Positions 8,951 through 40,161 are shown, counted from the first letter of the stretch. The stretch: DNA of 52,302 nt from Psammoneis japonica (GCA_008632985.1 QPGO01000047.1:484212-536513), one strand, 5' to 3'. Made by a program: numbers and translations. Notes: generated from the letters alone by a model not told the origin.

Positions 8951-9056
8951 GGCTGTTTTGCATTTTGCGTTTTTCGTCATCTCTCGACATTGTCCCCCCA
9001 ATGCTTTCGGGGTGCAACAACGATCATGACTGCAACCTTTTGGTCAAGATGCAACA

Positions 9057-14065: not shown

Positions 14066-14318
14066 TGCACAGATGGTCTCCAGAGACCACCTGTGCACTA
14101 TCGCCTGCACAGATGGTCTCCAGAGACCATCTGTGCAGCTGCGTTAAATTCTACGTGTTTGTACCAGGAAAATGTACCTCCAACCTATCCGGCAGGCGTG
14201 AGTAATATTTTATGTACGAGAAAGAGTTCGTTGGTGCAGGCGAACAACATCACTCTACGATGCTGCTGGTACAAAATCTACGTAAATGCACAGATACGCT
14301 CTGGAGCATGTCTGTGCA
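14066..14318. repeat. Three 32-bp hairpin palindromes
   Basis: TGCACAGATGGTCTC-CA-GAGACCA(C/T)CTGTGCA at 14066-14097 and 14106-14137; variant TGCACAGATACGCTC-TG-GAGCATGTCTGTGCA at 14287-14318. Confidence 0.85.
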
Positions 14319-14569
14319 AATTCGAGCTCGTAAATAATAAGCAGGGATATTGTACATACCTCGTCAGCACTTTGATATTAAATATTTATAATACCTGTTA
14401 TATCTTAATATATATATTTATTTTGCAACGGAATCTTCGCCAATCCGCCTCATTTTTTTCACACACACACTCCTGCGGGTTCGTCATAAGTACAACCTGC
14501 TTCCACCATGATCACTACAGCTCCTGGTCTCATAAGTCTGGCTTCGTAGACTCGTTCATAGTATACATC

Positions 14570-16675: not shown

Positions 16676-17109
16676 GTCTGCCATACTTTGACATGGAAAA
16701 GTGCGTTCGATTGTTTCATGCACCTGTCGCTGGATACGAAGAAAGTTTGATTTTTATAATGAATATATTTTGTTGTGCGTTAAATGCCTTCAAAGAGTTT
16801 ATCGCATAGGCTTGTACTTCTATTGCTCCACTTCTTCCGTTCTCATCCATTCGTCATGACATGTCTAAATCTTCTCCTACTTTCTCTACACTAGAAAATA
16901 CATTCTATAACACAACAAGAACGAAGTGTGAGATCCAACTATTTGGAAACACATGTGTGCGATGGCAACAGAGATTCATTCATAGACGGCGCAACTCGGA
17001 ACTCAATCTGCAACATACCTCGTCCATCCATTCGTCGACTTTTCTGGATATTTCTTCTCGCGCAGCGGCCTTTACCAATAAATGTGTTGCATCTAAATCC
17101 TTGATAATG

Positions 17110-19336
17110 CTTCTTTTCCGAACTGAATGAATTGCTTGGTGACAAGTTCCCTCCAGGGAACAGCATGATGTCCTTGATGCAAAAATGAGCACGATGCCCC
17201 AGCTGCAGCAGCAACAAAAGAATTTTCATGACAAGGGCTTTGGGTGAAGTTGTGACATCATTCTGTGACATCAGCTGACACTCTTGCACAAGGGACCACA
17301 CTCAGAAGTCCTGTCAGCACATCATCACATGTGCTGTGGGCTGTGGAAACACATTTCCTGAAATTGTTTGGCATGAAAGAGCAGCAGGGTGGGCATTTGT
17401 GTTCAAAACTGGCAGTTTGTTTTTGCACACCAATTCTGTGTGTGCAGAGTGCTGATGGTGTCCATCTGTGTGGGCAAGAAGATCAGTGCAGCTCTGTCAT
17501 TTTTTTTCAAAATGACTTTGACAAAAAATGCTTTTCAGTCATGTGGATGGACGGCAGAGATGACACCAAGGCTTGTTGTTGTCAACCACCAGCTTGTGAG
17601 CATTGCTTGAGCACGGTTGCTGGGTGGGAGCAAGGCATGTGGGAATGACAAGATGAGACAAAAAAAGCATGAAAAACATTGGCAGCAGTGTGTTGGAGCA
17701 ATGAAAAGCTTGAGCCAGCCAGTGGCTGGTGTGTTGTGTGATGCCCACTTCATTGACAAGCATGAGTTGCTTTGTTCTGCCCTCAAGGAGATTGCAGTTG
17801 CTCCAATCATTTCTGACATGTTGTTCTTCCCTTGCCTCAGATGTGCCTTGCAAATCTGTGTGGTGTGTGACAACTGGTGATGGTTGCAATGTGGAAGAGG
17901 CAATGAGGAGAAAAGGGCTGAGAAAAAATGCAAAAGAATGAGAGCAAAGCATGCCCAGAGCAGAGCTCACAACATTTCAATGTTGACCATGAGAGCTGTT
18001 GCATGGGGCCAGCTCAGAAATTTTTCTTTTGCTTTGTTGTTTGAGGAGGGTGAAAATTTCAGCTTCTTTTGTGCTGAAATTTTTAACAACATCTTCATGA
18101 GAGAGGCAGAAATCAAGTGCTGGGCCACACAGGCAGGAGGAGGAGTCGCACCTGAAAAGAGTGATGTCTGCCATTTTGTGGTGCACCCACAAGCTTGTGA
18201 GAGTGACACTGAGCCTTTCCTGTGGCAGAGCAGTGTTTTGCATGCTCTGTCAGAGCAGCCAGCATCTCAGGCCAGAAAAGTTGTTGATTGCTGTCAGCAC
18301 GCAAATCACTGCAGAGGACAGCAGCATCATTTCTTGTGGCTGGCAGGAAGATTGTGCTTGGCACAGTGGTGGTCTCACCACTGCAAGGGTGCTGTCATCA
18401 TGGTTGCAGCAGCACACCAGCCCCACACCAGTGTCTTGAGCTCAACCATTTTGTGCATGTTTGGGGGGAACTGATGTCTTTAGAGAGGTGCTGTGGCGGA
18501 GAGTCTGCTGCCTGCCAAAGGAGGAGACTGAAGCACTGCTGACAGCCTTGCTGGGGCAACTGCCAAGGTTTCATCTGATTTGAACAAAATCACCTCTCCC
18601 CAAGTCCCAAGTCTTTGATCTTCCAGATGTGAGCAATTTTTGTTGCTCAAGTCAAGCATCTGTGCTCTTGTGGGTTTTGGGGGCAGAACTTTGCATGCCA
18701 TGACCAGCTGACCACTGTGCCACCACACACCATGCCATGTGCATGTTCACACCTTGGCAAGACAACAACAAAGATTGCAGTTCAAGAAATTTCTCCCAGA
18801 CTGCCACATGAAAGAGAAAGTGCTTGGTCACAAAGGCAAGAGCAAAATGATGATTGCACTCATCCTGGGAACATCCCAAGGTGTGTGCACAGCCCCCTTT
18901 GCACCATGTTGTGTGAGAAACAATGCAAGCCCCCAGCCAGATGAGCACACTGCATTTGTCCAGAAGTGTGCAGCACAAGCTCCCTTTGGTGGGCTGAGCT
19001 TTGAAACACAGATTTTCCCAGTTCACCACCTCGCTGTTCCCTTGTCAAAAAGAGAGCATTCCAAGTGGCAGGTGATGCAGTGTTGAGTGCAGAGGCAGAG
19101 CTTGTGCCACTTCACACAATTTTTGCCCTGTCAAGGGAATGCACCCAGCTGCTGCTCTGTGTCAAAGGCAGTGCACCAGCACATTTTTGCAGCCAGCCAG
19201 TGCTTCAATCTTTTGCCTGAAACAGCCTCTCACCAAAGCAGTCTCTTCAAAGCATTGCTCTTTTTTGTTGCAGAGCATGAGCAAGAGACAGCTGGTGAAA
19301 AGAGAGTGCAAAAGGAGTGGCAGCATGGGTGATGTG
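17110..19336. repeat. Degenerate TpA- and CpG-depleted block
   Basis: Only two TA found by eye in about 2.2 kb (18084 and 18481), both in TTTA. No recognisable protein. Confidence 0.75.
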
Positions 19337-19732
19337 GACGCGTTCCAGCCCTAGGTGGGAGCTCGTAGTACTGACGTGTGACAACAATAATTTTTATCAT
19401 CCGTCGTATGTTTCGTACGTAGATTTCTACGTGTGATATTTAAAAAAAATTGTCCAGACTCGCTGTTTTGCGAAGCCCCAGACGTTTTATATAACAAATT
19501 TATAGAAATAATAATGCGCCAGTTACATTCTTCAATGTCTGAAGAATGTAACTGGCTAAGTAAAAAATGATGTACTTCAATCATGTGCGAGTTTGTGCGT
19601 TCGCAAAATTGCCTCATTTTCTGTTGGCGATCATTGACATTTTAATTACCGTATAATTTTACTACGGAGCTCGCACGTAGAAGTCTACGGGCCCAATGTC
19701 ACACGGATTCCCACCTACGTCTGGAACGCGTC
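19337..19732. mobile_element. MITE copy B, 396 bp, same TIR family as 9057-9445, 4-bp TSD TGTG
   Basis: Starts GACGCGTTCCAGCCCTAGGTGGGA and ends TCCCACCTACGTCTGGAACGCGTC. TGTG at 19333-19336 and 19733-19736. The last ~70 bp are nearly identical to copy A. Confidence 0.9.
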
Positions 19733-22023
19733 TGTGGTGGCACAGTGATTCAGGGTTTGTTCAGGGTGGTGTGGAAGCATCTTCTTCAGAGCAGCATGGA
19801 AAAGGCAGTTGACGAGGCTGGAAAGCACACAAAGGGCAAGCTTCTGGAATGATGGCACCATTTTTGACAGTGGGTGCAGCTGGCTCTGCACAGCACAAAC
19901 CAGCAATTGCACTGGCAACCTGTGCCAACATGGTGTGGTGGGCAGTGGTGAGCAATTGAGTTGACAGCAGCGCGGCTGCTCAGCCTGCTGCGCACCAACA
20001 CACCGCCATTGCTGCTCCTTGCTCCCCACAGTTCTCTCTTTTTGGTTTGTTGTTCTGTTTGGAGACTTGTTGAGAGGCGCCATTTGCCATCAATGGCCGG
20101 TGCAGAAAAGGCACAAAAAATCAAAAGAAACCCGGCACAAATTGAGTGTCCCACCTGGGTTTGCTCTGAGCCTGTGATTTTATGGCCTGAATTGTTGGGG
20201 TGACTGGGAACGTGCCTCCAGATGTCATGCACATCATGAACACAAATGTGTGCGCAGCTGGAGCTTTTGATGCAGCACCTGCTTTTGGGTCAGCCCACAA
20301 ACCAATGACGCATTCATGTTTGAAGAAATGGCATGAAAGAAATGGTGTCTTGTTGCGTCAGCATGACTTGATTGAAAATGATTCTCAATGAAATGTGTTT
20401 GTCTGCATTCACATGGAAAGCATGTGTTGAGTTCATGTGCAACTCCCATGCATGTCATTTTTTGCAGGGAACGCTCTGCTGCAAACCAACGGTTTGGAGA
20501 TCAGAGAGAAGCTGTGTTGTTGCCACTGTTTGTTGCATGCATCACACTCCCTGGGCATGTTGTTGTTGCAACCATGACAACAACAACTTGAAAAGGACTT
20601 GTGTCACACTTGCCATTGCTTTTCCTTTGTCATGTCAATGTGTTGTGTTGAATCATCTTCTGGTGTGTGTGGTGAAGTTCGTTGTCCTGTTGAGCCGCAA
20701 CATTGATTGAAGCAGGATGAACCAGAAGATGCTCCATCTCCCACGTCAAAAATGCCAACCAAGGCACCAACATTTGCACCCATTCCACAACCTGCAATTG
20801 CCCCCACATGCTCACCCACCATGACTCCAACCTTGTGACTGACATTGGTGCCAACAACTCCAGACGCGACACGCAACCTGCTGCAGTTCCCATTTTAACA
20901 ACAAGCAAACCAACCTTTGTTGTCGCTGCGCCGGAAGCACCCACCAGTGCGGCACAACCCATTCCCACCAAAAGCAATCCCACCACCATGCACCATGGTG
21001 TCCTCTGCCATCTTCTCAAAGCTGCTGTCCCACCTCACATTTCTCAGATCATGGGCAACCTTGCAAAGTGTCACTCTGCTGAACTTGCTCTCTTCCATCT
21101 TAAAGCTTTTGCCCCTCTTCATTGTCAAGCCAAGCTGCCAACTCCTCATCTTGTTCCTCACAAACTTTCATCTCTTGCAAAGACAAAAACCTCTGTGTGG
21201 AATTTTTTCTGTTGAGATGCCTTGTGACAAGGTCAGAGCAGTTGCAAAAGTTCTCCTGGAGAAACAGAGTTGCACAAGAAAGCACACATCACAGATGATG
21301 TTTCCTTTTGCATTGATGAAAACATGCAGCCACATGAAGCATGGGCTGGCCTTGCTTGTCTCCTTGCTGCTTGTGCGTGCACTGACGCCAGGCAGTGACA
21401 AATGCCATGCACCCTTTTGCTGGGAACAAGGAAATCCAGAAAAATGGAAACCCAGAAATCTGGAAAAACGGAAACCCGGAAATTCAAAAATGTGGAAACC
21501 CAGAAATCCGGAAAAACAGAAACCCGGAAATCTGGAAAAACAGAAACCTGAAAATCTGGAAAAATGGAAACCCGGAAATCCGGAAAAACGAAAACCCAGA
21601 AAATCCAGAAAAACGGAAACCCGGAAATCCGGAAAAACGGAAACCCGGAAATCCGGAAATGCGGAAACCCAGAAATCTGGAAAAATGGAAACCCAGAAAT
21701 CTGGAAAAACAGAAAGACAGAAATCAGAAAAACTGAAAAACAACCATTCCACAACCTGCAATTGCCCCCACATGCTCACCCACCATGACTCCAACCTTGT
21801 GACTGACATTGGCGCCAACAATTCCAGATGTGACACGCAACCTGCCACAGTTCCCATTTTGACAACAAGCAAACCAACCTTTGTTGTCACTGTGCTGGAA
21901 GCACCCACCAGTGCGGCACAACCCCTTCCCACCAAAAGCAATGCCACCACCATGCACCATGGTGTCCTCTGCCATCTTCTCAAAGCTGCTGTCCCACCTC
22001 ACATTTCTCAGATCATGGGCAAC
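19733..22023. repeat. Degenerate TpA-depleted block containing a 280-bp direct duplication (20780-21059 / 21744-22023)
   Basis: Three TA found by eye (20181, 20896, 21101), all TTTA/TAAA. The two 280-bp copies align without gaps. Confidence 0.8.
21430..21740. repeat. Minisatellite, ~24-bp unit GGAAACCCGGAAATCCGGAAAAAC (8-bp subunits), about 13 units
   Basis: Directly visible tandem array. Variants are mostly CG->CA/TG (CCAGAAA, CTGGAAA, ATGGAAA). Confidence 0.92.
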
Positions 22024-22299
22024 TGACAGAAATCGAAGGCAAATGGCAAGAATTCAAACAACAACTCCTTGCTGCTGTCTAAATGGCAGATGAGTCTCCG
22101 CTCAGAGACCGTCACAGGAGCCGAAAGACGTGTAAGTCGGCATGATCGGGCCACTGTTGTTGTTCTTGTGAGCCTTGTGGCTCGAAAGCAAACTGCATCG
22201 CGCGCGAACGCGCGGAACTAAAGCACACAAAACTGTGCGCGGTAAACTAAACAGCGCGCGATACTTCGCGCGCATCCAAATCCTGTTCAAATCCTGTCA
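22024..22299 (-). repeat. 3' LTR (276 bp)
   Basis: TGACAG...CTGTCA; aligns without gaps to 28808-29083 with 16 differences. Confidence 0.95.
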
Positions 22300-25200
22300 C
22301 TCCCCAGTTTGCTTGAGGAGCCACAGAAACAGATTCGATTTCGGATGGAATGAAGTTCCAGAACATGAGAGGGCGGAGAAGGTCCCAGATTTGGGAGTAA
22401 CCCCAATGCTTGCTGAGAATGTCAGCAGGGTTGCGGGAGCCTTCGATGAAGTGGAACTCAAGGTAACCAGAGGCAATTGCCTCACGCACACGGTGGAACG
22501 ACAGTGCGGTGTGTCGCTTGTGTAACTTGGAGTGCGGGATGGTGGCACTGTCTACAACCGACTTGTTGTCACCGAACATGTAACTGACATTACGGATCGG
22601 GACGCCAAGGTGGCGCAGGGTGATGCGCAGGTCGACAATCTGCTCGACACAATTCCTTGCGGCAACAAATTCAGATCCGCAGGTTGCAGTCTCCACGGTG
22701 GCTTGTTTCTTGGAGAACCAATCAGCCGGGAATTTGTTGAGGAAGTGGAGCATTCCCATGACAGAGCGTCCGGTGAGCATGCAATGGCACAAGTTTGCAT
22801 CGACGCAGTGGGTGGCAGTGACGAACTTGCCAAGGGGCGGTGGAGCGTCCTTCGGGATCATCTCTTCTGCTTCACCATACACGGAATGCATCCATTCACA
22901 GGCCGGAGCAGGGAGATCCGAACAGTCGGGCTCTTCCGTACGAACGCGGAGAGCACCGTGTCGCATCTTGGAGAGGTGCCCACAGACGCGTTTGGCACGA
23001 TCCAAGTGGCCTTGACGGGGCGCAGCTCGGAAGCTAGAGAGTGACATGACAGCCGTGGTGATGTCAATTCGACCAAGGGACACTGCCCATTGGAGTGAAC
23101 CAACAAGAGACTGGAACTTGTGAATGCCATCGGGTCCCAGCAGTTCGGAAGTGTCCAGTTCGGGGTGGTCACCCTTCTCTAGAGGTGACAGGGCGTTGGT
23201 GGCAGGTTTCTCCCCAAACAATCGGGCGCAGCTGTCGACCATGCGCTCGATGTACTTGCGCGGAGACAGACACAAGGTTCCGTCGGGGTCCCGGGAAAAG
23301 TCGCAACCCAGATGGAACTCAATGGGTCCCGTGCCCTTGAGCTTGAACTTGCACTTTTCAATGAGAGTGTCGATGAAAGATTGAGGGTCCTTCATGGCAA
23401 TGGCGAGGTCATCCACATAAACGCCAATGCATTCACAGTGGTCGCCGTTCCTGCGCATCCAAATGTCGGGTTCGGCGCGGCAGGGGAAGAAGCCTTCAGC
23501 TCGCAGGCAGTCGGCGAAGCGCTCGTGCCAGCGGAGACCGGAACTGCGAAGTCCATACAGTGCCTTGTGGATGACAAGGATGTGTCCTTCGAGTTTGCCA
23601 AATTCGGGTCCAGCTACAATGTAAAGCTTCTCCTTGGTGGTGGCTTCAAGGCAGGCATTGCCAATGTCGGTGGCCCATGTCTCCAGCTCGTTGAGTTCGG
23701 CCAGGAAAATCATCAGCCGAAGGCCACGGAGGGAGACTACTCCGGAGTAAACACCATCGACAGGTACGTCCGTGAGGTGCCCGTCGGCTACGAGTCGTGC
23801 CTTGTGGCGACCGTCGTGTTTCACGTCGAACACCAGGTGCACTCGGATCTTCTTGTGTCCCGCAGGAGGAGTGGAAGACTTGAAGGGCCCGCAGTCATGG
23901 AAGACTTCGTATTCGTCGAGTTGGTCCATCTCGAGATTAGTTGCGTCTCCCCACTTGCGGTTGCCGTTGCGTTCGTCCAGTGACATGGCGTGTTTGTAGT
24001 TCCGGGGAACTTCGCATCCGCACTTGCAACGAGGTGCAGTGCGGAAGGAGCGAAGCTTGGCTTGGTTGGCCATGCGAAATGGCTTCTTTTGGCGCCTCGC
24101 GACAGTGCGGAACCGCTTCCAGCCATCCGTGTCGAGGAGTCCGTTCTCTCGTGCATAGATGGCACAGGTGACGGGGTCGTCCTTGGCGATGATGGCAAGA
24201 GGTTCGGACGTGATCTCCCCACTTTCCCATTCAAGCATGATGTTGTAGCTTGAGCCTTTCCAGGTTGGGTCGTGAGGCTTCAGAGGTCCTTCGTGTGATG
24301 CGATGCGTCGAAATTTCCAAATGGTGGTGTCTTCGTCTTCTTGCTCAATGTGATTCATGATGTCATTGTGGGCAAGGACTTCCTCGCATTCGTCATTGTT
24401 GACAGAGCAGACGAACTTAGTGAGCTCGGGATTGCCGTTCACTTTCCATTCGTGGTCTTCGACGGCCTTGACGATGCGAGCTCTGTGGCGTTGTCCATCC
24501 TCTTGTGGCTGCATGAGGAAGGTACGTCCAATGATGTCTTGCGGATCGAAAACTGGCATCTTGGGTGTCCTGATCTCCCCATCAGTAGAATCGACGGGGT
24601 TGTCGTCATGGCGAGATTTGATGATGGGTTCAGGTGGCTCCCCATCAGGAGGATCAAGACGCAGGTTTCGAACGGCAGGATCGGGGGCAGCAGAGCGAAC
24701 GTTGGACCGGCAGAGGATCTTTTGAGTCTCGTCAGATAGGATCTTGAAGGTCATCTGGTGGCCGACGTGCTCAGCAATGCCAACAAAGCGTCCACGCAAC
24801 TCACGGGATTCGGACGGCCAATCGGAGTCATCGAGGTGGAAGCACACTGGTTCCCACCAGTGAAAGCGAAGCAATGGGCTGATGTCCGGGGTGGATCCAG
24901 TGAGAGTCTCGAGGGGCGTGCGCCAGTGGAGACGTGGGGACGCTGTGTGGTTGAGCATGAAGCACACGCACATGAGCGCCAGGAGCCATGTGTGGGCGGG
25001 CGAACCAAAACGGTCCATGACAGTGTTCGCCATGCGCTTCACGGTCTGGTGTTGACGTTCGGCAAAGTTTTGGTGTTGCTGGTGAGGCTCACTTTGCCAG
25101 CTGGAGATGAAGAGGGCGCGCAGGATCCCGAGCACTTTGTTGCTGATCTCAACTTGAGCACGGTCGCCAATGAGTTTGGATGGTGCACCACGTTCACGGA

Positions 25201-27868
25201 TCTGATCCTCGAGTGTGTTGACAAACTCTTTGTCCGTCTTGGTGCCGCAGATGTCAGTGACGGTAGACTCGGTGCCAACAAACAGTTGGGTGCTGGTGCA
25301 ACCAGAGTCGACGGCCGGGGTGTCGGCATGAACGGTGTCAGTGGCGACAGGCTCGTTGCGGCGGTGCACATTAAGGGCGGGGTTGGGTGATTTGCAGGCC
25401 TTGCGAAGGTGTGCACCGGCGGGCATGCGGGCGCACTGCGTGGTGCAGTCAAAAGTACGACGGACCGCATCGGCAGGTAGGAAGCCAAAGCAAGGCCGAA
25501 GAGACTCGAAGGGGGGGTCCTTGGGCTTGACAGTGCGCTCTGGAGGTGGAACGTCATCGCCCGTGGGGTCAATCGCATGCAGATGACACTCGTAGAACAC
25601 GTCGTCGTTCGGAATGAGGTGATCATCGAGGGCGGACGCGTGATCGTCAGACAAGGAAGCGGACAAGATGGTCTCGTTGACAACGACACGGTGACGGCAG
25701 TTGCCGCATTCGTCAAATGGGTTGGCAGTGGGATCGTCCTGCAGGTCAGAGATCGCGTCGTACCACTGGTCGTCGTCAGTGACAGAGTGATCGAGTGCGG
25801 AAGGGTCCCACGTGTCATCACCGGTGAGGATGACATGGGGCAGGGTGTCCCATTCGGCGTCAGTGCAAGGTCGCATGGCAACATGAGGCAGGCCAGCCTT
25901 GATGTCAATGGGGATGACACAGCCATCAGGAGTGGCAACACGTTGCAAGCCGTTGGGCACCTTGACAGAGCGATCGTTGACATCCTGTTTGCACCATTCG
26001 AGCTGGCCGCAGGAATGGATGGTCTTGCCCTTTCCCGTGCATGCGTGCTGATGGAGGATGGCGATGACGGGACCACGCTGGGTCTCAATGACGGCACCAG
26101 CGGTGACAATGGGGATGTCCACCAATTGATGATCGTCAATGCCCTGAACGTCGACTTGGCGAGAGGTGCGTGCGATGACACGAACGTCGTCGCCAGCAAT
26201 GCCGCCGTTGGCCCCACGATCGACCAGAGCGCCAGTGCGTGTGGAGCGATGAGCAGAGGCAGAGCAAATGACATTGTGGTTGTCAACGCGGCGGCAAGTG
26301 CGGCCGTTAAGTTCCATGTTATCTGCAGAAGCTGGCGGGGTAGAGGAAGCGGCGGATGGCCCCGGTCGACTGGCATTGGGGGCTTGGTTAGGAGACAACA
26401 GACGTTGCAGATCACCGGGTGGCAGTGGCTTGCGCTTGGTGAGGTGCGCCAGGATGGGATCATCCGAAGTGGCCAAGTTGACATCACCGTCACTCCCAAG
26501 GTGTTGGTCGTGAAGGTTGGCCGCAACAGACTCATGGCAGTTGCTGGCTCGCGGGTTGCGGGGAGGCGGGCGAGAGTGCTCAAGGATGATCGCCTTGGAG
26601 GAATCGGGCAACGAATCCCAGAGCCGTTGGTGGTCGGGAGGGAGACGTCTCCATTGGACACCGGTGAGGCTGGGACCGCGGGTGTGGGCAGCATTGGCGT
26701 GAAGGACGTCAACGTCACTGTCAATGTCGCAGAACACATCGTCGGACGGTTCCTCGGAGTGGACGTCGTGTGCGTGTGTGGCGCGTCGGGGAGCTCGAGG
26801 TGTCGTCTTGGGTTGAAACGTGCTGTCGCACTGAGCTGCCGCGGAGAGGAGCAAGCCACAGTGTTGATCGTATGTGAGGCTCTTGCCACTCTGCGTACGA
26901 TGCTGATCAGCTTGGTTCTTGACAGCACGGAGTTCCTCGACAGGGTGCACGGCATTCTCGAGCATGACGCATTTCTGTCCTTCAGAGAAGTGGTCACTGG
27001 CGGGGATGAGTGCCTCGCACTTGCGCAACTGATCTTGCCAATGAAGGATGAACCCGTGGGTTGGACCTTTCCAAGTGCCATCACCAAGACGTGCGGTGGT
27101 GAGGTGCGTGAGCAGGGTGGAGGACTCGACAGATGCGCGGGTGGAGGCAAGCGCGTGCTCAGACAAGGAGCGGCAGACGGTCTGTGCGTCAGAAGACCCC
27201 ACATTTTCGCGAATGAGAGCCTTGCCCTTGTCGGTGAGAAGGATGCGTTCGAAGATGGCGAACATGCACTTTTGCTGTTCAGCAAAGAGCAGTTTGTCTT
27301 CGGGGCTGGTCGGTTTGTACGACGAGTCTAGAATGCACTCGACGTCTTGGGCACGGGCTTGTGCCACAAGTGAGGTGTGCCAAGTGTGCCACTGCTTGTC
27401 GGATTTGAGAGCCGTGAAAGCGGTGGGATCACGCTTGATGCCTCGCTTGAAGTCTCGCACCGGGTCGCGTGCCTTGGTCGGGTTGGTGACATGTGGAGGT
27501 GCAAGGGGTGAGCTGCCGATGGACACAGAGGACATGCAGTCCGGGCTGAGGCGGCAGGCAAGGAACTCGTCATGCGCGAACAAAGAGGAGTCGTTGGCAA
27601 CGTCAAGACCTTTGTGTGCTTTGACAATGTGCAGGCTGGCTAGTGCTGCTAACATGTTCTTATAACCACGGGGCAAAGGGATTGCATCAGTGCCGTTGTC
27701 GCACTCAAGCGAGTCGATTTGGGACGGTGTGAACGTGAATGGTTCCTGATGCGAGTCCGTGCCGTCTTGGGCCAAAGCCAAACGAAGAGGACTCCCAGCA
27801 CCTTGGGCAAGCACGGTTCCAACAACGTGCTCGAAACCATCGGTTTGTTGCTGACGAGTGAGAACCAT
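22247..27868 (-). CDS. Copia gag-pol polyprotein; frame open but hypermutated and probably non-functional
   Basis: Protease 'LVDRGANGG'; integrase 'VATDT...DRAQ...QNFAER'; RT 'HKARLVADG', 'KALYGLRSSG', 'VYVDDL'; RNase H 'FGDNKSVV...NPADILSK'. Many conserved Tyr are Cys/His. Confidence 0.93.
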   Translation of the reverse strand: MVLTRQQQTDGFEHVVGTVLAQGAGSPLRLALAQDGTDSHQEPFTFTPSQIDSLECDNGTDAIPLPRGYKNMLAALASLHIVKAHKGLDVANDSSLFAHDEFLACRLSPDCMSSVSIGSSPLAPPHVTNPTKARDPVRDFKRGIKRDPTAFTALKSDKQWHTWHTSLVAQARAQDVECILDSSYKPTSPEDKLLFAEQQKCMFAIFERILLTDKGKALIRENVGSSDAQTVCRSLSEHALASTRASVESSTLLTHLTTARLGDGTWKGPTHGFILHWQDQLRKCEALIPASDHFSEGQKCVMLENAVHPVEELRAVKNQADQHRTQSGKSLTYDQHCGLLLSAAAQCDSTFQPKTTPRAPRRATHAHDVHSEEPSDDVFCDIDSDVDVLHANAAHTRGPSLTGVQWRRLPPDHQRLWDSLPDSSKAIILEHSRPPPRNPRASNCHESVAANLHDQHLGSDGDVNLATSDDPILAHLTKRKPLPPGDLQRLLSPNQAPNASRPGPSAASSTPPASADNMELNGRTCRRVDNHNVICSASAHRSTRTGALVDRGANGGIAGDDVRVIARTSRQVDVQGIDDHQLVDIPIVTAGAVIETQRGPVIAILHQHACTGKGKTIHSCGQLEWCKQDVNDRSVKVPNGLQRVATPDGCVIPIDIKAGLPHVAMRPCTDAEWDTLPHVILTGDDTWDPSALDHSVTDDDQWYDAISDLQDDPTANPFDECGNCRHRVVVNETILSASLSDDHASALDDHLIPNDDVFYECHLHAIDPTGDDVPPPERTVKPKDPPFESLRPCFGFLPADAVRRTFDCTTQCARMPAGAHLRKACKSPNPALNVHRRNEPVATDTVHADTPAVDSGCTSTQLFVGTESTVTDICGTKTDKEFVNTLEDQIRERGAPSKLIGDRAQVEISNKVLGILRALFISSWQSEPHQQHQNFAERQHQTVKRMANTVMDRFGSPAHTWLLALMCVCFMLNHTASPRLHWRTPLETLTGSTPDISPLLRFHWWEPVCFHLDDSDWPSESRELRGRFVGIAEHVGHQMTFKILSDETQKILCRSNVRSAAPDPAVRNLRLDPPDGEPPEPIIKSRHDDNPVDSTDGEIRTPKMPVFDPQDIIGRTFLMQPQEDGQRHRARIVKAVEDHEWKVNGNPELTKFVCSVNNDECEEVLAHNDIMNHIEQEDEDTTIWKFRRIASHEGPLKPHDPTWKGSSYNIMLEWESGEITSEPLAIIAKDDPVTCAIYARENGLLDTDGWKRFRTVARRQKKPFRMANQAKLRSFRTAPRCKCGCEVPRNYKHAMSLDERNGNRKWGDATNLEMDQLDEYEVFHDCGPFKSSTPPAGHKKIRVHLVFDVKHDGRHKARLVADGHLTDVPVDGVYSGVVSLRGLRLMIFLAELNELETWATDIGNACLEATTKEKLYIVAGPEFGKLEGHILVIHKALYGLRSSGLRWHERFADCLRAEGFFPCRAEPDIWMRRNGDHCECIGVYVDDLAIAMKDPQSFIDTLIEKCKFKLKGTGPIEFHLGCDFSRDPDGTLCLSPRKYIERMVDSCARLFGEKPATNALSPLEKGDHPELDTSELLGPDGIHKFQSLVGSLQWAVSLGRIDITTAVMSLSSFRAAPRQGHLDRAKRVCGHLSKMRHGALRVRTEEPDCSDLPAPACEWMHSVYGEAEEMIPKDAPPPLGKFVTATHCVDANLCHCMLTGRSVMGMLHFLNKFPADWFSKKQATVETATCGSEFVAARNCVEQIVDLRITLRHLGVPIRNVSYMFGDNKSVVDSATIPHSKLHKRHTALSFHRVREAIASGYLEFHFIEGSRNPADILSKHWGYSQIWDLLRPLMFWNFIPSEIESVSVAPQANWGVTGFEQDLDAREVSRAV

Positions 27869-28792
27869 GGCAGACAAAAGTGGTGTCAGGACAATCAATT
27901 CTGGTCGGGAAGCGAAGGTGGACTCGAAACTTGGGTGAGAACAGACTTGACTTGAAACAGACTTGACTTGAAATCTTGAACTGTCTTAAAATCAGAAGTC
28001 GCCGGGCTTTGTTGTCCCGTTCGTTGTCAAGTGCTAAACTTCCCATCCGGACCGTAGAGTTGTGCCGGCACGTCCGAACCCGCAGCCAGCGGCGCTTTGG
28101 GTTGCTTGCGAGCGGAGTAGCGGGTTGTAAACCCCTGCAGGTGAGCTGACTGGAGGTGGACAAGACCCCCGAACCGTTCTCATTTTATGTCGGTTGGATT
28201 TCCCGATCAGGCTGGCCAGTTGACGCAGGCGTCAGGCGCTGTGGACGAACGAACAAACGCGGGAAAGCACCCTCGCCCCAACGCAGGCTGCAATCACGGC
28301 TGCTTGCTCTCACAGTCGTCCTCGTGGACCTAGTAGAACTGTAGAGCACCAGCAGTCCGGGGTAGATCAGGTACAATGGACTCGGTGTGCTTGTAGAGTG
28401 GCAGCAAAACCGCAGTCCGAAGAGTGGGTACAGGTTCTTGGCCGTGAAGATATGTATATATATATATGTCTTCAGCGACGAAGATCCTTGAATATGTAGG
28501 GTTCTTGACCGTTAACCGATGAATAGGTATATCAAGGGATGAGGATCAAGGATAGACTTGGATATGACCGTTGAATGTATGTCTTCAGCGATCAAAGGTA
28601 GTACAATCAATCCAGATATCCAGCGGTAAGGAGACTTGACGGTGACGTTAACTTCCTGCCGATGCCCTGGTATTGAATGCGCGTAGACTTGCCGATGTAT
28701 GTAGAATATATACGGAGGTCCACGTAGAATTGAAATAGCGTCGTTGGTAAATCAACGACGACGATGGCGGTTGCTCAATGGGTTGACAATGA

Positions 28793-28807
28793 GCAAGACT
28801 GTTAATC
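28793..28807 (-). promoter_or_regulatory. Putative primer-binding site complementary to a tRNA-Asn(GTT) anticodon arm
   Basis: The element strand reads GATTAACAGTCTTGC immediately after the 5' LTR. Its complement GCAAGA-CTGTTAA-TC has the form of an anticodon stem plus a CT-GTT-AA loop. Confidence 0.6.
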
Positions 28808-29083
28808 TGACAGAAAATGAAGGCAAATGGCAAGAATTCAAACAATAACTCCTTACTGCTGTCTAAATAGCAGATGAGTCTCCGCTCAGAGACCGTTACA
28901 GGAGCCGAAAGACGTGTGGGTCGGTATAATCGGGCTACTGTTATTATTCTTGTGAGCCTTGTGGCTCGAAAGCAAACTACATCGCGCGCGAACGCGCGGA
29001 ACTAAAGCACACAAAACTGTGCGCGGTAAACTAAACAGCGCGCGACACTTTGCGCGCATCCAAATCCTGTTCAAATCCTGTCA
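28808..29083 (-). repeat. 5' LTR (276 bp)
   Basis: TGACAG...CTGTCA; retains most TA dinucleotides lost in the 3' LTR. Confidence 0.95.
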
Positions 29084-29952
29084 CAAGCAATGAGCCCTTC
29101 TTGCATTGTCACTCTGGGCACTTGCGCTGCCCCAAGATTGATGGCATCTTGCTCACCCCAAATGTGCAGCAGCCACCAGAGCAGAGGAGCCAAGAAAAGG
29201 TGTGATGATGCCAAGCATCACATGAACCAATTTCAGAAAAAGAACTTGTGGTTGCTCTGGGTGGCCATCAGCTGGAAACCTCAACTCAGATGGCACTGAA
29301 AACAATTGCAAAGAAGTGGCAGTGGTGTTTCTGACAACACAGCATGTCTGCAAAGTGGTGGATTTGCTCGCCAACATGAACAGAGCACAAGTTGTTGCAA
29401 ACATGATGCTTGAGTGCAGTTGTTTTGTTGTGTGCTCTTTTCCACATCCCCAGCTTGATGGCTCACCTTGATGACTTCTCATGTCCACACCAGCACTTTG
29501 CCATCTTCCTTCTTTTGACATCATGGCATCTCATCATTGGTTTGTGCCACACTGATCAGCTTTTCATCATCATCCAGAGCTGCTTCATGTGAGGTTGTCA
29601 TTGCTGTCAAAGTTTTCTGACAAGTTTGCCTTGGTCCAGCTGCATTTCCAGGCTCTGGCACAATGCACTCTCCAAGAATTGCACAGGTTGGAAAGCTGCC
29701 AGGTTTGCGCACTCGCTGTTTCAATGATTTCTGCATCAAAAATGTGCAATCAACAGGTCACTGAGTGTCACATGTGGCCAACAGCTTCCCCAACAATGCC
29801 AAGCACACAATGTTGTTAGAGACACAAAAAAGGCAGTTGTGTTGGACAGCAGGTGACATTGGTGCAAAAAGACATTTGGTGCAAACAAGCAAGCAACTCT
29901 CATGGACTTCAGGAAGAACAACAACCAATTTGCAAGTCATGTTTGCCATTTC

Positions 29953-29984
<32 letters not shown>

Positions 29985-30975
29985 GACATGTGGCCAGGGT
30001 GCTGGTGCCTTTTTGCACAGTGGATTGACAGAACATGCAGCTGAGATTGCAAAATTCCCCTGCATGTCTCTGGGCATGGCTTGGTCAATGAGAAACAATG
30101 CCAAAAGGTGGCAGGAGTGGTGCCATGGAAGGTGTTGCAAACAGAAAATGCTTTTTTGCACTTGTCTTCACATGCGCATGTTTTCTCTTTTTCTGGAACT
30201 CCAGCACCGGGCAGACAAATTCTCGCTAAGATGAAAACTCACAAGATGAGGTGTTGCACATTTGAAGCCATTGCAACACCATCATCCAAGATGTGCATTT
30301 TCATCCCAGGTGAGAAACTTTTGGACAAATCACGAGGTTTTTTGCGCGCTTCTGTGCAGCACACACACATGCCCAGAGAACAAAATGCCAGCTGCGCAGG
30401 TGGCCAGCACAGTTGAGTTGTCCATGAATCAATGAAAGAAGAACAAGCACAGCCAACATTTGCAAAAATTGTGAATCAGCAGAAACTGCCTTCACAAATG
30501 TGAAAATTGCAGCCATTGTTCATTGTTCTTCTTGCCAAGTGCAGAAACATGTTGCAGACACAGCCAACACCATGCTGTCAACGAGGCTCGCAAAGTTGCA
30601 GAGTGTGCATTTGCACTGCACCTCTCCAGCTTTTGCCAAATGAGCCCAGAGGCAGGCCAGTGCACCTTTGCCACTTTGGCCAAGAAATCTCGCTCACGTG
30701 CTCGCCCTCTTGCAAAAACCTCTGGCAGCAGGCAGTGTCTTTTGATGTGCGGCGCTGAGGCAAACATTTGTCAATGCAGGTGCAGGGGTGCTGGGTGGCA
30801 CCCAGAGAGATGTTTTTGGTCTGGACCCATGCTGGCCAGTCGAAGAACCAAACAGAGAACACAACGGCTCCAAATGATGCACACCCACAACTTCTTCTGT
30901 GACTCTCCAACAATTCTTTCCTCCCTTGCCTTCCATCTCTTCTCTGGCTTTTGTGACCTTTCGCCACTGATGGAT
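29084..30975. repeat. Degenerate TpA-depleted block with (GTT)n microsatellite at ~29953-29985
   Basis: TA is nearly absent (seen at about 29817 and 30227). Overlapping Cys/His-rich ORFs have no recognisable domain. Confidence 0.7.
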
Positions 30976-31089
30976 CAAGTTACCTCGACATGCACCACCG
31001 CGTAACAAACAAAAGAAAAGAACCCACAAAAAATGCCTCTGTCTCTCAAACAAAGCATGGCAAAAGAAAATAGAACGTCCAAGCGTGTG

Positions 31090-31146
31090 CACCCGATGTG
31101 GGGATCGAACCCACGACCACACGGTTAAAAGCCGGGCGCTCTACCA
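31090..31146 (-). tRNA. tRNA-Lys(TTT), 5'-truncated/interrupted in the D-loop
   Basis: Minus strand TGGTAGAGCG-CCCGG-CTTTTAA-CCGTG-TGGTC-GTGGG-TTCGATC-CCCAC-ATCGGGT-G gives the D-arm 3' half, TTT anticodon, T arm and 3' acceptor strand. T-runs lie ~20 nt downstream. The first ~16 nt are missing. Confidence 0.88.
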
Positions 31147-32825
31147 TTTCCCGGCTATGGGTTGGACATTCGCCAGGTTAATCTTTGAGTATTTAATCGC
31201 TGCAATGCAGTGCGCGCCGAGGAGCTCCTGTCGACATTATTAGCAGAAATGGCATGTGCATTCCTGCTTAACATGTTTTTAGTGTGTATCTGCATGAAAC
31301 AGAGAATATTTTTGTCTGTGTATCATTATTGTCCCTGCGTTAGGTGTGTATCAGTGACGGCTCTCGCTGCCCAATCGATAGCTATCGTCTGTCTTTGTAC
31401 GTCATAACGTCTGTTCGTCGTTCTCTGTTCTGTCTCGCGCGAAAACCTGCGCAGGCAATCAGCGCAGCACCGTGCACCGGCGCTCATCATTCCTTCATTG
31501 AACGATCACACGATGAGCAACCCGTTTGACGTGTGCGGCCTGTGGAATAATCACCGCCCTTCTACAGTTTGAATCATCCCAAGAGATGTCTGGTGTCAAT
31601 TTCAAGAAGGGACAACCCGAGTCTTGCGTCAATAAGAATCGTGGAGTGGGAGTGGTCGTCTGATCCCGTGCTGAAGAACACCTGCAGCGCCAACCTCACA
31701 CCTCCGCGACCCGTTGTAGGACTTGTAAGTTTTGTTTGTTCATTCGATAAGACTTGTTGATTGTCGTGTGTTTTTGTATTTCACCTCATTTCATCGGCAA
31801 CCCATGACTTCTCTCGCTTCATTCTTTTGTTCTTGGGAAGAGCATGTGACACGTGATATCGTACGAGAAAGAAGAGTGCTGTATCGTTTGCTGTTGTGTG
31901 GGTGAAAAGTGCCTTGTATTTTCTGTTTGTTTTGGTCGATTGGTACTGTTGATTGTCATGCATTTTGTTTCGCCTTTTTCCATTGGCAACTGATGATTTT
32001 TTTGGCTTCATGCTGTTGTTTTTAGGGAGCATTTACACTGTTTTGCTGTTGCAGGTACTCATAATACCTATTGATAGTTGTGTATTTTGTTTCGTCTTAT
32101 TCCGTTGGTAACTGATGAATTCTTTTGCTTCATTCTTTTGAATTAGAGAGCACCTGCACGCACTGTCTTGCTGCTACCGGTGCTATACTAATTAGAGCGT
32201 GGTATCGTTTGTTGTTGTTTGGGTGAAAAGTGCCTTTTACAGTTTGTTTGTTGATGGTATTCGACCTATTGATTGTTGTGTATTTTGTTTTGTGTTTTTC
32301 CATCGGTTAACTTGTGACTTTCGCTTCATTCTTTTGAATTAGAGAGCACCTGCACGCACTGTGTTGCTGCTACAGGTAACAATAAGAACGCCGTATCGTT
32401 TGCTGATGCGGGTAATAATCACGATCAACCAATCTGTGAGATCATCTCAAGGTAGCATGGGAGGTAAGGTGTGATACAAAAATGTATATTCTGTATGTTT
32501 TTTCCTTTTTGATTCATGTCTCTTTCTCTCGTTCTGCCTGCCTACAGCACATAGGTACTGCATGGTTTCTACCAGGTAAATCATTAGTTTACACAACTAC
32601 AGTAAACCATGGTGTGCCCGGTCGATTGCACACGCTACTATATTCTTGGTATCTCATACATCGGTATACAAAACAGCAAATGTGAAAGTGTCCGCCGAAC
32701 ACTACACAATTGCCATACCAATCCGTTTCTCTCTTGCTCATCTTTGCGAGAAGCTGTACTCCTTATATACTCACAGTCGTGAAGCCTACCCAAAGGCCTC
32801 GTCCGGTCGACGTCATCATCTACCT

Positions 32826-34445
32826 CTACCAGGCAAAGTCTTCAAAGTCAGAGTCTTCATCATCCGAGTCTGCTTCGAGGTCATGGTCGTCTTTGTCTGA
32901 GTCTGCTTCCAGGTCGTGGTCATCTGAATGCACGGTGTGCAACGAAGCGTCATCCGAAGCGTCGTCCGAGTATGTGTCTGCTAACTCATTGGAGTCAGCA
33001 GCTACCTCATCATCAATCCACTGACCATAAAATGTTGGTTTCCCACGACTTCGAGGACCCAATGCATTGTTATCACTCGTAGGGGGCATGACCAACGCCA
33101 CGGCCTCTTCCTCGGCGTCGCTCTCTGCAGGTTCGACAGAAGTTGCACCGGTAAGATTCGTCAAGCGTGATGCATTACTCTCACTCGCATCCAACTCAAC
33201 GGCCTCTTCCTCGGCGTCGCTCTTTGTACGTTCGACGGTATCGACTGAAACAGCACCCGTAGGATTCGTCAAGCCTGATTCTGGCGGATCCTTCCTATTT
33301 GCACCGGCAGCCTTCGTCGCGTTGGATTTCGGGTATTCCTTCCTAGACGTGTCGGTAACCTTCTTTTTCTTGGGTTTGGGAGGATCCTTCCTACAGGCAG
33401 ATGCTACCGATACCGCAGCCTTCCTCTTGGTTGATTTCCCACCGGCAGACGCCACTAATACTGCAGCCTTCCTCTTGGTTGATGATTCGGGAGGATCCTT
33501 CCTAGTAGAAACGGGAGGAGTGTCGTAATTGGCAACAAGGCCGTGAGTAATGGAGAGTGCAAGTGCCATTTTCTTTTGAGTGTTCGCTTCCAATTCAGCT
33601 CGGGCTTTTGCGGCTGCTACACGCTCCTTGTCAGAGACCTGGTACTTTTCACGAATAGTCCACATGGACTGACTTTTTTCAACCTTGATCAAGTACTTTT
33701 CTGCCGTTGCAATGTACTGATACTTCAAATACTTGATTTTCTTGTCAACCTTGGTGAACGTCACTTCCACCGTGGTGATGTTTTCCTTTTCCCGAAGAAG
33801 CAGAATATCGAACAAGGCAACAACGTCGTTCCAGTAGATGTGCGTTTTGCCGCACTGACGAATGTAGCAAAGAAGAGCCCGTCCACACAACTCGTTGAAC
33901 CAACCGTCGTATTTATCATTTTTTCTTCGGATTTCTCGATTTTCTTTGGTTGACTTTTTGAAAACTCCGCGGCTCTGCCGGTCCTGCTCTTCAGCGGCCC
34001 TTTTCTTCTTCATTGCCGATCGAAGATCATCGTCAGCGGTAAGTCTTTCTTGTTGAAGATCCTCGTGACGCCTTCGCTTGACGCGATCCTGTTTCCGAAC
34101 GAAATCGCGACCGTGTATCGCCAAGTCTCTCTCACGCGCTTCCTTCACGTATCCACGATGATATTCGGCCCGCTTTTTTAGGATATCGAGGCGTTCCTGC
34201 TGCTCATCGGAAAGGCTACTCAGACTGCCAAGGTAAGCCACCTCGCGTCGCTCCATTTTGCGATGGCATCGCTGGCAAACGAAATAGCCAGCACAACCGT
34301 GGCCGCCGCCTATCCTTGACCCTACACAAACCATGGTCCGAGAATCACTGTCCGCTTCATTTTCGTCGTCAGCCGTCAAAGAGCAGTCTTGCGCGGGAAT
34401 GTCAGCAATGGCGGGGGACCGGGGCAGCTCCACCGAAGACTCCAA
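32826..34445 (-). CDS. Element protein, C-terminal part: Cys cluster, charged helical region, RKDPP repeats, acidic tail
   Basis: 539-codon frame starting at TTG and overlapping the upstream ORF by 70 nt; 'CVGSRIGGGHGCAGYFVCQRCH'. The C-terminus is duplicated at 40162-40875. Confidence 0.65.
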   Translation of the reverse strand: MESSVELPRSPAIADIPAQDCSLTADDENEADSDSRTMVCVGSRIGGGHGCAGYFVCQRCHRKMERREVAYLGSLSSLSDEQQERLDILKKRAEYHRGYVKEARERDLAIHGRDFVRKQDRVKRRRHEDLQQERLTADDDLRSAMKKKRAAEEQDRQSRGVFKKSTKENREIRRKNDKYDGWFNELCGRALLCYIRQCGKTHIYWNDVVALFDILLLREKENITTVEVTFTKVDKKIKYLKYQYIATAEKYLIKVEKSQSMWTIREKYQVSDKERVAAAKARAELEANTQKKMALALSITHGLVANYDTPPVSTRKDPPESSTKRKAAVLVASAGGKSTKRKAAVSVASACRKDPPKPKKKKVTDTSRKEYPKSNATKAAGANRKDPPESGLTNPTGAVSVDTVERTKSDAEEEAVELDASESNASRLTNLTGATSVEPAESDAEEEAVALVMPPTSDNNALGPRSRGKPTFYGQWIDDEVAADSNELADTYSDDASDDASLHTVHSDDHDLEADSDKDDHDLEADSDDEDSDFEDFAW

Positions 34446-38553: not shown

Positions 38554-38901
38554 ACAGTGCCTCAAGAAATACAGTACCTCAAGACACCATCACGGAACAC
38601 GGTACATTATACCTCAAGTTCGTCTCATTTCTTGTCAAGTGGTGCATGACTGTCCTCTCTGTACTGCAGTAAGGTTGCGGTGTGCGCTGGATGAGTTGAG
38701 ACAGTGCCTCAAGAAATACAGTACCTCAAGACACCATCACGGAACACAGTACATTATACCTCAAGTTCGTCTCATTTCTTGTCAAGTGGTGCATGACTGT
38801 CCTCTCTGTACTGCAGTAAGGTTGCGGTGTGCGCTGGATGAGTTGAGACAGTGCCTCAAGAAATACAGTACCTCAAGACACCAGCACGGAACACGGTACA
38901 T
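38554..38901. repeat. 147-bp tandem repeat, ~2.4 near-identical copies
   Basis: ACAGTGCCTCAAGAAATACAGTACC starts at 38554, 38701 and 38848. Confidence 0.92.
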
Positions 38902-39798: not shown

Positions 39799-40161
39799 CT
39801 CACCTATCGTCGATTCGAGCGTGAATGGTCTTGGTAACCAACTCCTTCAGTATTGAGGCAGTCTTCTTCTCATTTACTTCTCCGGTGAGTCTATGAAACA
39901 TCTCAGTCCATGAGATCATCTCAAAGTACCTACTGTATATTCAGCATATATTGTATCAATTATTCCTCGTCTCTTTTCTCTCGTTCTGCCTGCAGCACGA
40001 CGTACTGCACTGTTCCTAAATCATGAGTTTACACAACCTACAGTAAACTTATTCTTGGTATCTCGTACATCGGTACAAACAACAGCGAAAGCAAAAGTCC
40101 ACCGTACGCCAAGTACTTGCCGCACCACTCTGTTTCTCCCGGTCGACATCATCATCTACCT

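Follow-up and report, generated by a model that had tools for sequence, protein, structure and literature searches.

The question raised by this locus is why a long, uninterrupted coding frame should have almost no tyrosine. The locus lies in a stretch of 52,302 nucleotides recorded under Psammoneis japonica (GCA_008632985.1 QPGO01000047.1:484212-536513; hereafter the window, in whose numbering all positions are given), and consists of a copia-type long terminal repeat (LTR) retrotransposon whose polyprotein frame, on the minus strand, is strikingly poor in this amino acid. The initial annotation, made from the sequence itself, had proposed that conserved Tyr codons were turned into Cys and His codons by mutation at the dinucleotide 5'-TA-3' (TpA). 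With good confidence, which does not extend to the enzyme, we attribute the pattern to a targeted, TpA-specific hypermutation of this copia copy at the DNA level. The direction of change, its sequence context, its occurrence on both strands, its timing after integration and its regional limits can all be read from the data described below.

The element measures 7062 nt, spans positions 22023-29084 on the minus strand, and is bounded by two 278-nt direct repeats, both with the termini TGACAG...CTGTCA, i.e., with TG...CA ends. The repeat at 28807-29084 is the 5' LTR and that at 22023-22300 the 3' LTR (both minus strand). A leader at 27869-28806 (minus strand) connects the 5' LTR to the ATG of the gag-pol polyprotein frame, which extends from there to its stop (22247-27868, minus strand) and is open and hypermutated. 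Counted from stop to stop, the frame occupies 22247-27985 on the minus strand and holds 1912 codons; our recount agreed with the initial annotation on the 18 Tyr codons and on the first ATG at 27868. Intact relatives cover 27868-22337 as one uninterrupted piece in tblastn, and a tblastn search with three intact relatives found no further copia copy elsewhere in the window. The reverse transcriptase domain RVT_2 (PF07727, E = 1.3e-27), at 23231-23866 on the minus strand and residues 1374-1585, retains the Y of YVDD in the window copy and is the sole domain that Pfam recognised in the frame. No integrase was recognised by Pfam at E values up to 1, either in the query or in two intact relatives, and a profile built from 16 relatives matched 0 solved structures in PDB for the putative integrase. 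D..D..E-like motifs at approximately residues 870-980, read by eye, are presumably those of an integrase, a placement to which Pfam lends no confirmation. A scan of 1.84 billion representative proteins returned 52,082 relatives at E values up to 0.001, and the window element is one of the very many copies of a Ty1/copia-type LTR retrotransposon family.

For the protein comparison we used the 120 best relatives (the best 120 of 1731 among the candidates scored), which are 45-71% identical to the query and are nearly all marine-type metagenome records. Tyr accounts for 0.94% of the 1912-codon frame, as compared to a median of 3.83% and a minimum of 2.86% in the 120 relatives, and Cys for 2.98% as compared to a median of 0.96%. 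In composition, the strong outliers relative to 86 full-length relatives are three, namely Tyr (z -9.0), Cys (z +12.3) and His (z +3.5); Ala, Pro and Trp are mildly high. The initial annotation had also described a Tyr-free stretch across the integrase. The stretch itself was recovered, as a 448-residue gap that separates residues 798 and 1247, but its placement over an integrase was not, because Pfam recognises none there.

The replacement of Tyr is most evident at conserved positions. We defined a conserved column as one with at least 80% agreement among 70 relatives of 1780-2000 aa (the first 70 by id of the 120), which yielded 755 columns, 37 of Tyr and 718 of other residues. The query departs from the relatives at 27/37 Tyr columns (16 Cys, 8 His, 2 Phe and 1 Trp) versus 62/718 non-Tyr columns (Fisher p = 2e-19). 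The initial annotation had allowed that active relatives might carry Cys or His at the same positions. They do not: these residues occupy only 20/2590 Tyr-column cells in the relatives, with at most 3 in any one protein. When the 89 conserved-column substitutions were classified, we obtained 22 single steps of the type TA>TG, 8 of the type TA>CA and 8 of CpG type; the remainder comprised 4 other A:T>G:C transitions, 25 transversions and 22 multi-step changes. Where more than one ancestral codon could be envisaged, the classifier favoured a TA origin, a choice that matters for I1745M alone. Once the 38 TA- and CpG-type changes are subtracted, 51 deviations are left, within the range of 16-96 seen among the relatives themselves, and the copy looks like an ordinary family member that was edited afterwards.

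All motifs quoted in the initial annotation (DIGNAC, CECIGVYVDD, THCVDANLCH and others) behaved as predicted when set against the consensus of 16 relatives. From consensus to window, DIGNAY changes to DIGNAC, VYEYIAVYVDD to HCECIGVYVDD, THYVDANL to THCVDANL, ETATYGSEF to ETATCGSEF, LRYLGVP to LRHLGVP, KYKYGFEVP to KCGCEVP, ERRYQTVK to ERQHQTVK and KRIYGYL to KRVCGHL. Codon junctions contribute as well, as in LISDRAQ to LIGDRAQ and SVYSG to GVYSG; the substitutions S940G, S1411G, I683V, I1295V and T858A all fall at T|A junctions. The wider set of secondary substitutions that had been anticipated was found in part: conserved columns show S>G twice, I>V twice, T>A once and I>M once (the ambiguous case), but L>P or L>S at none (0). 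The one V>A that we saw lies outside a TA context, and one L>P relative to the family occurs at residue 82.

That such a heavily altered frame should remain open follows from the direction of change. No stop codon contains C, and A>G only converts TAA to TAG or TGA; hence neither T>C nor A>G can convert a sense codon to a stop, and the frame stays open. Among CpG changes, CGA>TGA alone makes a stop. Other frames of the same stretch are also open, over 762 and 616 codons, and the intact polyprotein frame is no evidence of function or activity.

The same signature is present in the DNA. Observed/expected (O/E) ratios in the open reading frame (ORF) are 0.19 for TpA, 1.50 for CpA, 1.28 for TpG and 0.94 for CpG, while ordinary sequence of the window (27.7 kb) has a TpA O/E of 0.64 and a CpG O/E of 1.02. 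The two LTRs, which are identical at the moment when an element inserts, now agree at 262/278 positions. Of their 16 differences, 12 set TA against CA or TG, 2 are CpG>TpG changes confined to the 5' LTR, and the last two are a transversion and a further transition, which adjoins a TA>TG change. Coded as purines and pyrimidines, the LTRs are identical at 277/278 positions (99.64%). The 3' LTR contains 6 TA and the 5' LTR 14, with 4 in common, from which 16 ancestral sites can be reconstructed. The 3' LTR has lost 10/16 of these and the 5' LTR 2/16 (Fisher p = 0.009). Expressed as a rate, this amounts to 12 changes per 32 TA site-copies versus 2 per ~400 other site-copies (own arithmetic). Since the LTRs were identical at insertion and differ by TA-type changes now, the change took place in DNA, after integration. 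It also affected both strands: the 10 TA losses in the 3' LTR went 6 times to TG and 4 times to CA, and the 16 Cys and 8 His at Tyr sites show no significant strand bias (binomial p = 0.15). Cys and His changes are interleaved along the protein (15 runs in a hand count versus ~11.7 expected), a pattern that suggests numerous independent hits rather than a single processive passage.

As a control we scored another direct repeat in the window, at 32780-33560 and 40116-40917, its core of ~740 nt lying at 32796-33518 and 40132-40875, 7.3 kb apart and 86% identical; 51 differences in badly aligned context were left out. The 59 scored differences comprise 9 of TA type, 7 of CpG type, 11 other transitions and 32 transversions, so that the TA-type share is 9/59 in the control pair versus 12/16 in the LTRs (Fisher p = 1e-5). 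The host genes of the window and the control pair are without the TpA signature, which indicates that the process was targeted and did not act on the whole genome. The DNA-level baseline for the family itself is thin, as it consists of one related locus from a metagenome scan (L001; 49% identity), in which the TpA O/E is 0.60; a scan of viral contigs found no relative of the element. As for the nature of the control pair, its TpA content is normal, transversions are many, and the ORFs that it encloses gave no Pfam match; it could be a segmental duplication or else the LTR pair of an older, different type of element.

Other copies of the family were examined in contigs from four runs, X1-X4, all from one sample and one study, which we compared with positions 17000-32000. 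X1 contigs with a word depth of ~64-205 match the TA-free sequence on the flanks of the element with 0-2 differences per 0.2-2.3 kb. Over the element, the summed depth is ~60,000-200,000, as compared to 64-205 in the flanks; it derives from 14,444 pieces at least 90% alike and is not a copy number. The abundant family variants differ from the window by ~2-4%, and 227/263 variant places between the window and X1 are transitions. Codon mapping was done for the 31 ORF places among the 40 listed of 268 variant places, and it revealed that family copies carry differing TA, CA and TG states at the same sites. At Tyr1703 (Tyr in 70/70 relatives), the window has TAT, while 54% of the family depth has TGT. 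Likewise, the window retains Tyr372 where 82% of the family depth reads TGC, and conversely it has CAC at residue 409, where 73% reads TAC. The junction case GAT GGT, in which the initial annotation had expected a Ser, was upheld: Ser1411 is conserved in 70/70 relatives, and 93% of the family depth reads GAC AGT where the window has GAT GGT, so that the two forms are the two products of one ancestral junction, GAT AGT. In addition, the window carries private CpG>TpG/CpA changes at places where ~100% of the family has CG, e.g., R978Q, V912I and V244I. Dinucleotide content, conserved columns, the LTR pair and the other family copies thus agree on the proposed direction of change, TAY>TGY and TAY>CAY.

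The mutated domain has an internal border. The TpA O/E is 0.13-0.30 across 22001-28000, rises within the leader from 0.45 in 27869-28400 to 1.05 in 28401-28806, and is 0.78 in the 5' LTR. The border accordingly lies in the leader, and the spared part is the first 700-1000 nt of the element, made up of the 5' LTR and the adjoining leader. It is possible that a targeting signal fails to reach this promoter-proximal part, or that the part was renewed by recombination or gene conversion.

Outside the element, five blocks of the window are depleted of TpA to a far greater extent. They lie at 1-5000, running off the window start (16 TA in 5000 nt, TpA O/E 0.05, CpG O/E 0.16), at 7830-9071 (1 TA in 1242 nt, CpG O/E 0.49, both edges sharp), at 17106-19351 (2 TA in 2246 nt, CpG O/E 0.08, left edge sharp), immediately left of the element at 19717-22022 (3 TA in 2306 nt, CpG O/E 0.35) and immediately right of it at 29085-30980 (2 TA in 1896 nt, CpG O/E 0.20). 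Together they hold 24 TA in 12,690 nt versus ~580 expected at the ordinary density of 0.046 per base. CpG O/E is 0.08-0.49, CpA and TpG each stand at 1.5-2.1, and G+C is unchanged at 47-48.5%. Block edges are sharp to tens of bases; TA occurs at 7829, for instance, then at 8172 and then at 9072. X1 contigs reproduce these blocks closely: a contig of 2350 nt matches 17106-19351 with 2 differences, others match 19717-22022 with 1 difference per 1103 nt, and the pieces that match 29085-30980 each show 0-2 differences. The blocks consist of complex sequence, not of simple repeats, and are near single-copy at 90% likeness. None of 133 block ORFs (34 of at least 110 aa and 99 of 62-109 aa) gave a mobile-element or viral Pfam match, the sole Pfam match being a host Tfb5 exon at a block edge, and a purine/pyrimidine-coded self-comparison detected no similarity from block to block or from block to copia. 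The blocks are likely older targets in which TpA loss has become saturated and a slower CpG>TpG/CpA decay followed. The element and the TA-free blocks make up about a third of the window.

Several smaller features lie within or between these blocks. An insert of 394 nt at 19338-19731 resembles a miniature inverted-repeat transposable element, with terminal inverted repeats of ~24 nt and an internal hairpin; it has a summed depth of 20,000-84,000, a TpA O/E of 0.92 and a CpG O/E of 1.6, and sits inside TA-free sequence, so that it is either younger than the block or not a target. A tandem array at 21381-21763 has an 8-nt period and units like CCGGAAAT, which vary between CG, TG and CA at the same position, and is a small in-place record of CpG decay. 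The array is flanked by a 283-nt duplication (20777-21059 and 21741-22023, 95% identical), at the end of whose second copy the element is inserted; its 13 differences are mostly of CpG type (6), together with CA-versus-TG pairs derived from TA or CG.

The TpA sites that survive are not a random sample. In the saturated blocks, 22/24 stand in a TTA or TAA context and 9/24 in TTAA, while the baseline in ordinary sequence is 453/1234 TpA (37%) for TTA/TAA and 2.8% for TTAA. In the partly mutated element (22023-28000), zero ATAT are left, and all ATAN classes are at 0-0.56 of the baseline. Susceptibility appears to run from TAT through TAC and TAG to TAA, an order that is a lead and not a measurement, since it depends on the composition that the element had originally.

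In our reading of these features, A:T>G:C transitions arose at TpA on both strands after integration, giving TpA>TpG and TpA>CpA. Across the 3' LTR and the ORF, between about two thirds and three quarters of all TpA sites were lost, while the 5' LTR and ~400 nt of adjoining leader stayed nearly untouched. TAY codons thereby became TGY (Cys) or CAY (His), and T|A junctions gave S>G, I>V and T>A. The process was targeted and not genome-wide, far outpaced the CpG decay of this copy, and has as its likely saturated end state the flanking TA-free, CpG-poor blocks, in which the slower CpG decay has caught up. As for chemistry, we tentatively propose a genome defence in which a TadA/ADAT-like deaminase converts the adenine of 5'-TA to hypoxanthine, and would give this somewhat less than an even chance.

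A number of observations weigh against this account. Flanking pentamers do not match as a target-site duplication of ~5 bp would; the point is weak, as the flanks are themselves hypermutated. Collinearity of the flanks rests on a match of ~17-19 nt to the sequence that follows the nearby left-flank duplicate. A recombinant 5' LTR and leader, acquired by gene conversion or exchange between elements, could alone explain the sharp border, and if the two have such an origin the LTR argument is weakened. The runs X1-X4 are possibly the source reads of the window itself and are not independent proof against a base-calling artefact. Some derived states, such as GAC AGT, are common to more than 90% of the family depth, which implies that part of the depletion was inherited from mutated copies that were still amplifying. 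G+C in the ORF is 57%, ~10 points above the window mean, of which TpA loss adds ~3 (own arithmetic). The evidence as a whole is historical, drawn from an LTR pair and from polymorphism among copies; no enzyme, base modification or new mutation was observed. Finally, the host is most likely a diatom, judging from sequence similarity, and this assignment rests on one gene with 30-41% identity to its matches.

Among other explanations, the one closest to ours keeps the TpA-targeted DNA process but places the chemistry on thymine, whose modification or oxidation, with 5-hydroxymethyl- or 5-formyluracil as possible products, would make it mispair with G and give T>C. TpA is self-complementary and this route would yield the same CA and TG products; sequence data cannot separate it from the adenine route. 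Dinoflagellate DNA carries 5-hydroxymethyluracil preferentially at TpA, and 5-formyluracil is mutagenic towards T>C. We nevertheless regard the thymine route as improbable, the only paper on this signature, a preprint, having proposed adenine deamination with an ADAT2-like candidate (10.64898/2026.01.13.699255). The depletion might instead be mostly inherited, with TpA lost stepwise in amplifying master copies that were supplied with proteins in trans, and with the window copy already Tyr-poor when it inserted. The summed depth of the family, ~60,000-200,000, the small distance of its abundant variants from the window, the derived states common to more than 90% of the depth, and the retention of TpA in the cis-acting 5' LTR and leader would all fit such a history. 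The small distance is not discriminating, however, because independent saturation also predicts a pairwise difference of ~3% (own estimate). Moreover, the LTRs differ at 12 TA-type sites, with losses of 10 versus 2, and the window has Tyr where 54-82% of the depth has Cys and His where 73% has Tyr; a mostly inherited depletion is therefore quite unlikely.

Hyperedited retroelements are known in animals, and the RNA of the element could have been edited from adenosine to inosine by ADAR- or ADAT-like enzymes before reverse transcription, the changes being fixed on integration. According to the preprint, enzymes of this kind prefer U before the edited A (10.64898/2026.01.13.699255). Editing of RNA would, however, give A>G on the sense strand only, whereas 8/24 Tyr changes and 8/30 TA-type changes are sense T>C; both LTRs would derive from one RNA, yet their TA losses are 10 versus 2; and the same signature occurs in flanking blocks whose 133 ORFs lack any retroelement domain. 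The strand and LTR data thus contradict an edit made to the genomic RNA ahead of reverse transcription, which we consider very unlikely. Still less probable is a sequencing or assembly artefact in which modified bases at TpA (and CpG) are systematically miscalled. The single sample behind X1-X4, possibly the source of the window, would leave room for it, and the platform is not on record. Yet a separate assembly into X1 contigs (depth ~64-205) agrees with the TA-free flanks nearly base for base, the state at a given site varies among copies, and seven public ENA/JGI sequences, described below, carry the same protein signature; the events reported for Bigelowiella natans were called from Illumina reads (10.64898/2026.01.13.699255). 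To an equally slight degree we credit selection, in the form of UpA avoidance in the transcript, or GC-biased gene conversion among copies. TpA is under-represented in most genomes (0.64 in ordinary window sequence) and the family is highly repeated, as these explanations would have it, but selection would retain invariant Tyr, of which 24/37 were replaced by Cys or His. Gene conversion favours all A:T>G:C changes, whereas we saw 4 outside TpA and 30 at TpA, and strong deviations of composition are limited to Tyr, Cys and His.

The TpA-directed signature of the window copy recurs in other public sequences. Among the fragments screened (150 best representatives and 118 relatives of one of them), seven copia-like reverse-transcriptase fragments from ENA/JGI have Cys or His at 5-12 of 8-14 conserved Tyr columns. 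P0319 (11/13 columns) and P0390 (12/14) lack Tyr altogether, P0319 even having His in place of the Y of YVDD. The proportion is 10/13 in P0426, 7/8 in P0474, 8/10 in P0269, 6/12 in P0442 and 5/9 in P0452, as compared to 1 of 15-17 conserved Tyr columns in each of three controls. P0365 and P0360 had seemed Tyr-poor at first look and were set aside as poorly aligned and without the signature.

Hypermutation of this kind has one earlier description, from an unrelated alga (2026 preprint); the present case, most likely in a diatom, adds to it. In that preprint, 230/231 new mutations in two integrated viral regions of B. natans are A>G or T>C, all at TpA, and they arise in some lines only, at a rate of ~6e-7 per site per generation, ~1000-fold above background (10.64898/2026.01.13.699255). 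The preprint also lists 324 TpA-depleted coding sequences enriched in reverse-transcriptase and DDE domains, together with 124 clusters that are depleted of TpA and enriched in CpA and TpG, and Mettrop et al. propose DNA adenine deamination by an ADAT2-like enzyme (10.64898/2026.01.13.699255). By our comparison, the footprint in the window equals that in B. natans in direction, context, strand symmetry and regional character. Both cases have A>G and T>C almost alone, a TpA context, changes on both strands and a sharp contrast with neighbouring sequence; in both, too, the process is confined to foreign or mobile DNA, although the ORFs of the TA-free blocks gave no mobile-element or viral Pfam match. 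The TpA frequency of 0.0018 given in the preprint for the depleted class is similar to the 24/12,690 of our TA-free blocks (own arithmetic). The two cases also differ. B. natans is a chlorarachniophyte (rhizarian), whereas the host of the window is most likely a diatom (stramenopile). In B. natans, the target is a single-copy insert of giant-virus or virophage origin and the evidence consists of new mutations, whereas here the target is a high-copy LTR retrotransposon and the evidence is historical (LTR pair, copy polymorphism). The parts of the preprint consulted make no mention of a heavy loss of CpG in saturated blocks, of a border sparing the 5' LTR and leader, or of TTA/TAA survival.

Other defence systems are less close. 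Repeat-induced point mutation (RIP) of ascomycetes resembles the process in the window as a dinucleotide-specific burst of transitions at the DNA level that inactivates mobile or repeated DNA, has sharp bounds and leaves its trace in dinucleotide content. In RIP, however, the changes are C>T, mainly CpA>TpA, and leave AT-rich sequence with many stops, whereas here TpA>CpA/TpG makes the sequence GC-richer and never creates stops. Fungal RIP was rejected as a candidate because the direction is opposite, TpA being lost, CpA and TpG gained and G+C at 57%. Diatom DNMT4 enzymes are described as related to the RIP factor RID and of unknown function (PMC9998398), and their relevance here may be limited to the CpG side. 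Deaminases of animals offer another comparison, with APOBEC producing G>A on cDNA and ADAR producing A>G on RNA, where U is preferred before A. Like the process proposed here, they act in defence by editing the nucleic acid of viruses or mobile elements, and they favour certain neighbouring bases. They differ in acting on one strand of a replication intermediate before integration, whereas here both strands of integrated DNA are affected and the LTRs differ. As for the target, the diatom Ty1/copia elements known as CoDi (Maumus et al. 2009, PMC2806351) resemble the window element in having RVT_2 within one long gag-pol frame, a host of diatom type and marine metagenomic relatives by the thousand. 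That paper mentions neither dinucleotides nor hypermutation nor point mutation (PMC2806351), and full-text searches of the literature, together with a closer look at two papers on diatom transposons, found no report of a TpA>CA/TG signature in diatoms.

Taken more broadly, diatoms may, like B. natans, run a TpA-specific DNA-editing defence on integrated mobile DNA, sharply bounded, faster than CpG decay, and old or recurrent across the algae of the stramenopile-alveolate-rhizarian (SAR) assemblage, a proposition that strikes us as almost evenly balanced, with a slight lean to the negative. If it holds, targets would be driven to an end state of CA and TG, without TA or CpG, in which kilobases of long open frames are left; the defence would be spread across SAR, and roughly one third of the 52-kb window would derive from it. 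The footprint in a diatom retrotransposon and in seven public fragments suggests a process that reaches beyond one species, and that may shape the mobile-element landscape of major marine primary producers. Several diatoms can be grown, crossed and edited, which makes the mechanism testable. For annotation, an intact frame of 1900 codons is no sign of an active element in such genomes, TA-free relics escape homology searches, and LTR divergence overestimates the age of insertion, here approximately fourfold (16 differences versus 4 that are not of TA type). Models of target recognition are constrained by the survival of TTA and TAA and by the sparing of the 5' LTR and leader beyond an internal border.

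Lastly, the window contains host genes and some minor features. A gene for a DENN-domain protein at 14036-16675 (plus strand) has ordinary dinucleotide content, and it is on this ORF that the host assignment is based: its named matches are all diatoms down to E ~1e-29, at 30-41% identity, and comprise Nitzschia, Pseudo-nitzschia, Cylindrotheca, Bacillariaceae, Chaetoceros, Fragilaria and Fistulifera. An exon for the TFIIH subunit Tfb5 at 17016-17120 (minus strand), with ordinary dinucleotides, lies directly against the edge of one of the TA-free blocks, and a fragment of a ligand-gated ion channel at 6017-7168 (plus strand) is also of ordinary dinucleotide content. The assembly is interrupted by 867 N at 45224-46090, and a 147-nt tandem duplication with 99% identity is located at 38554-38847.

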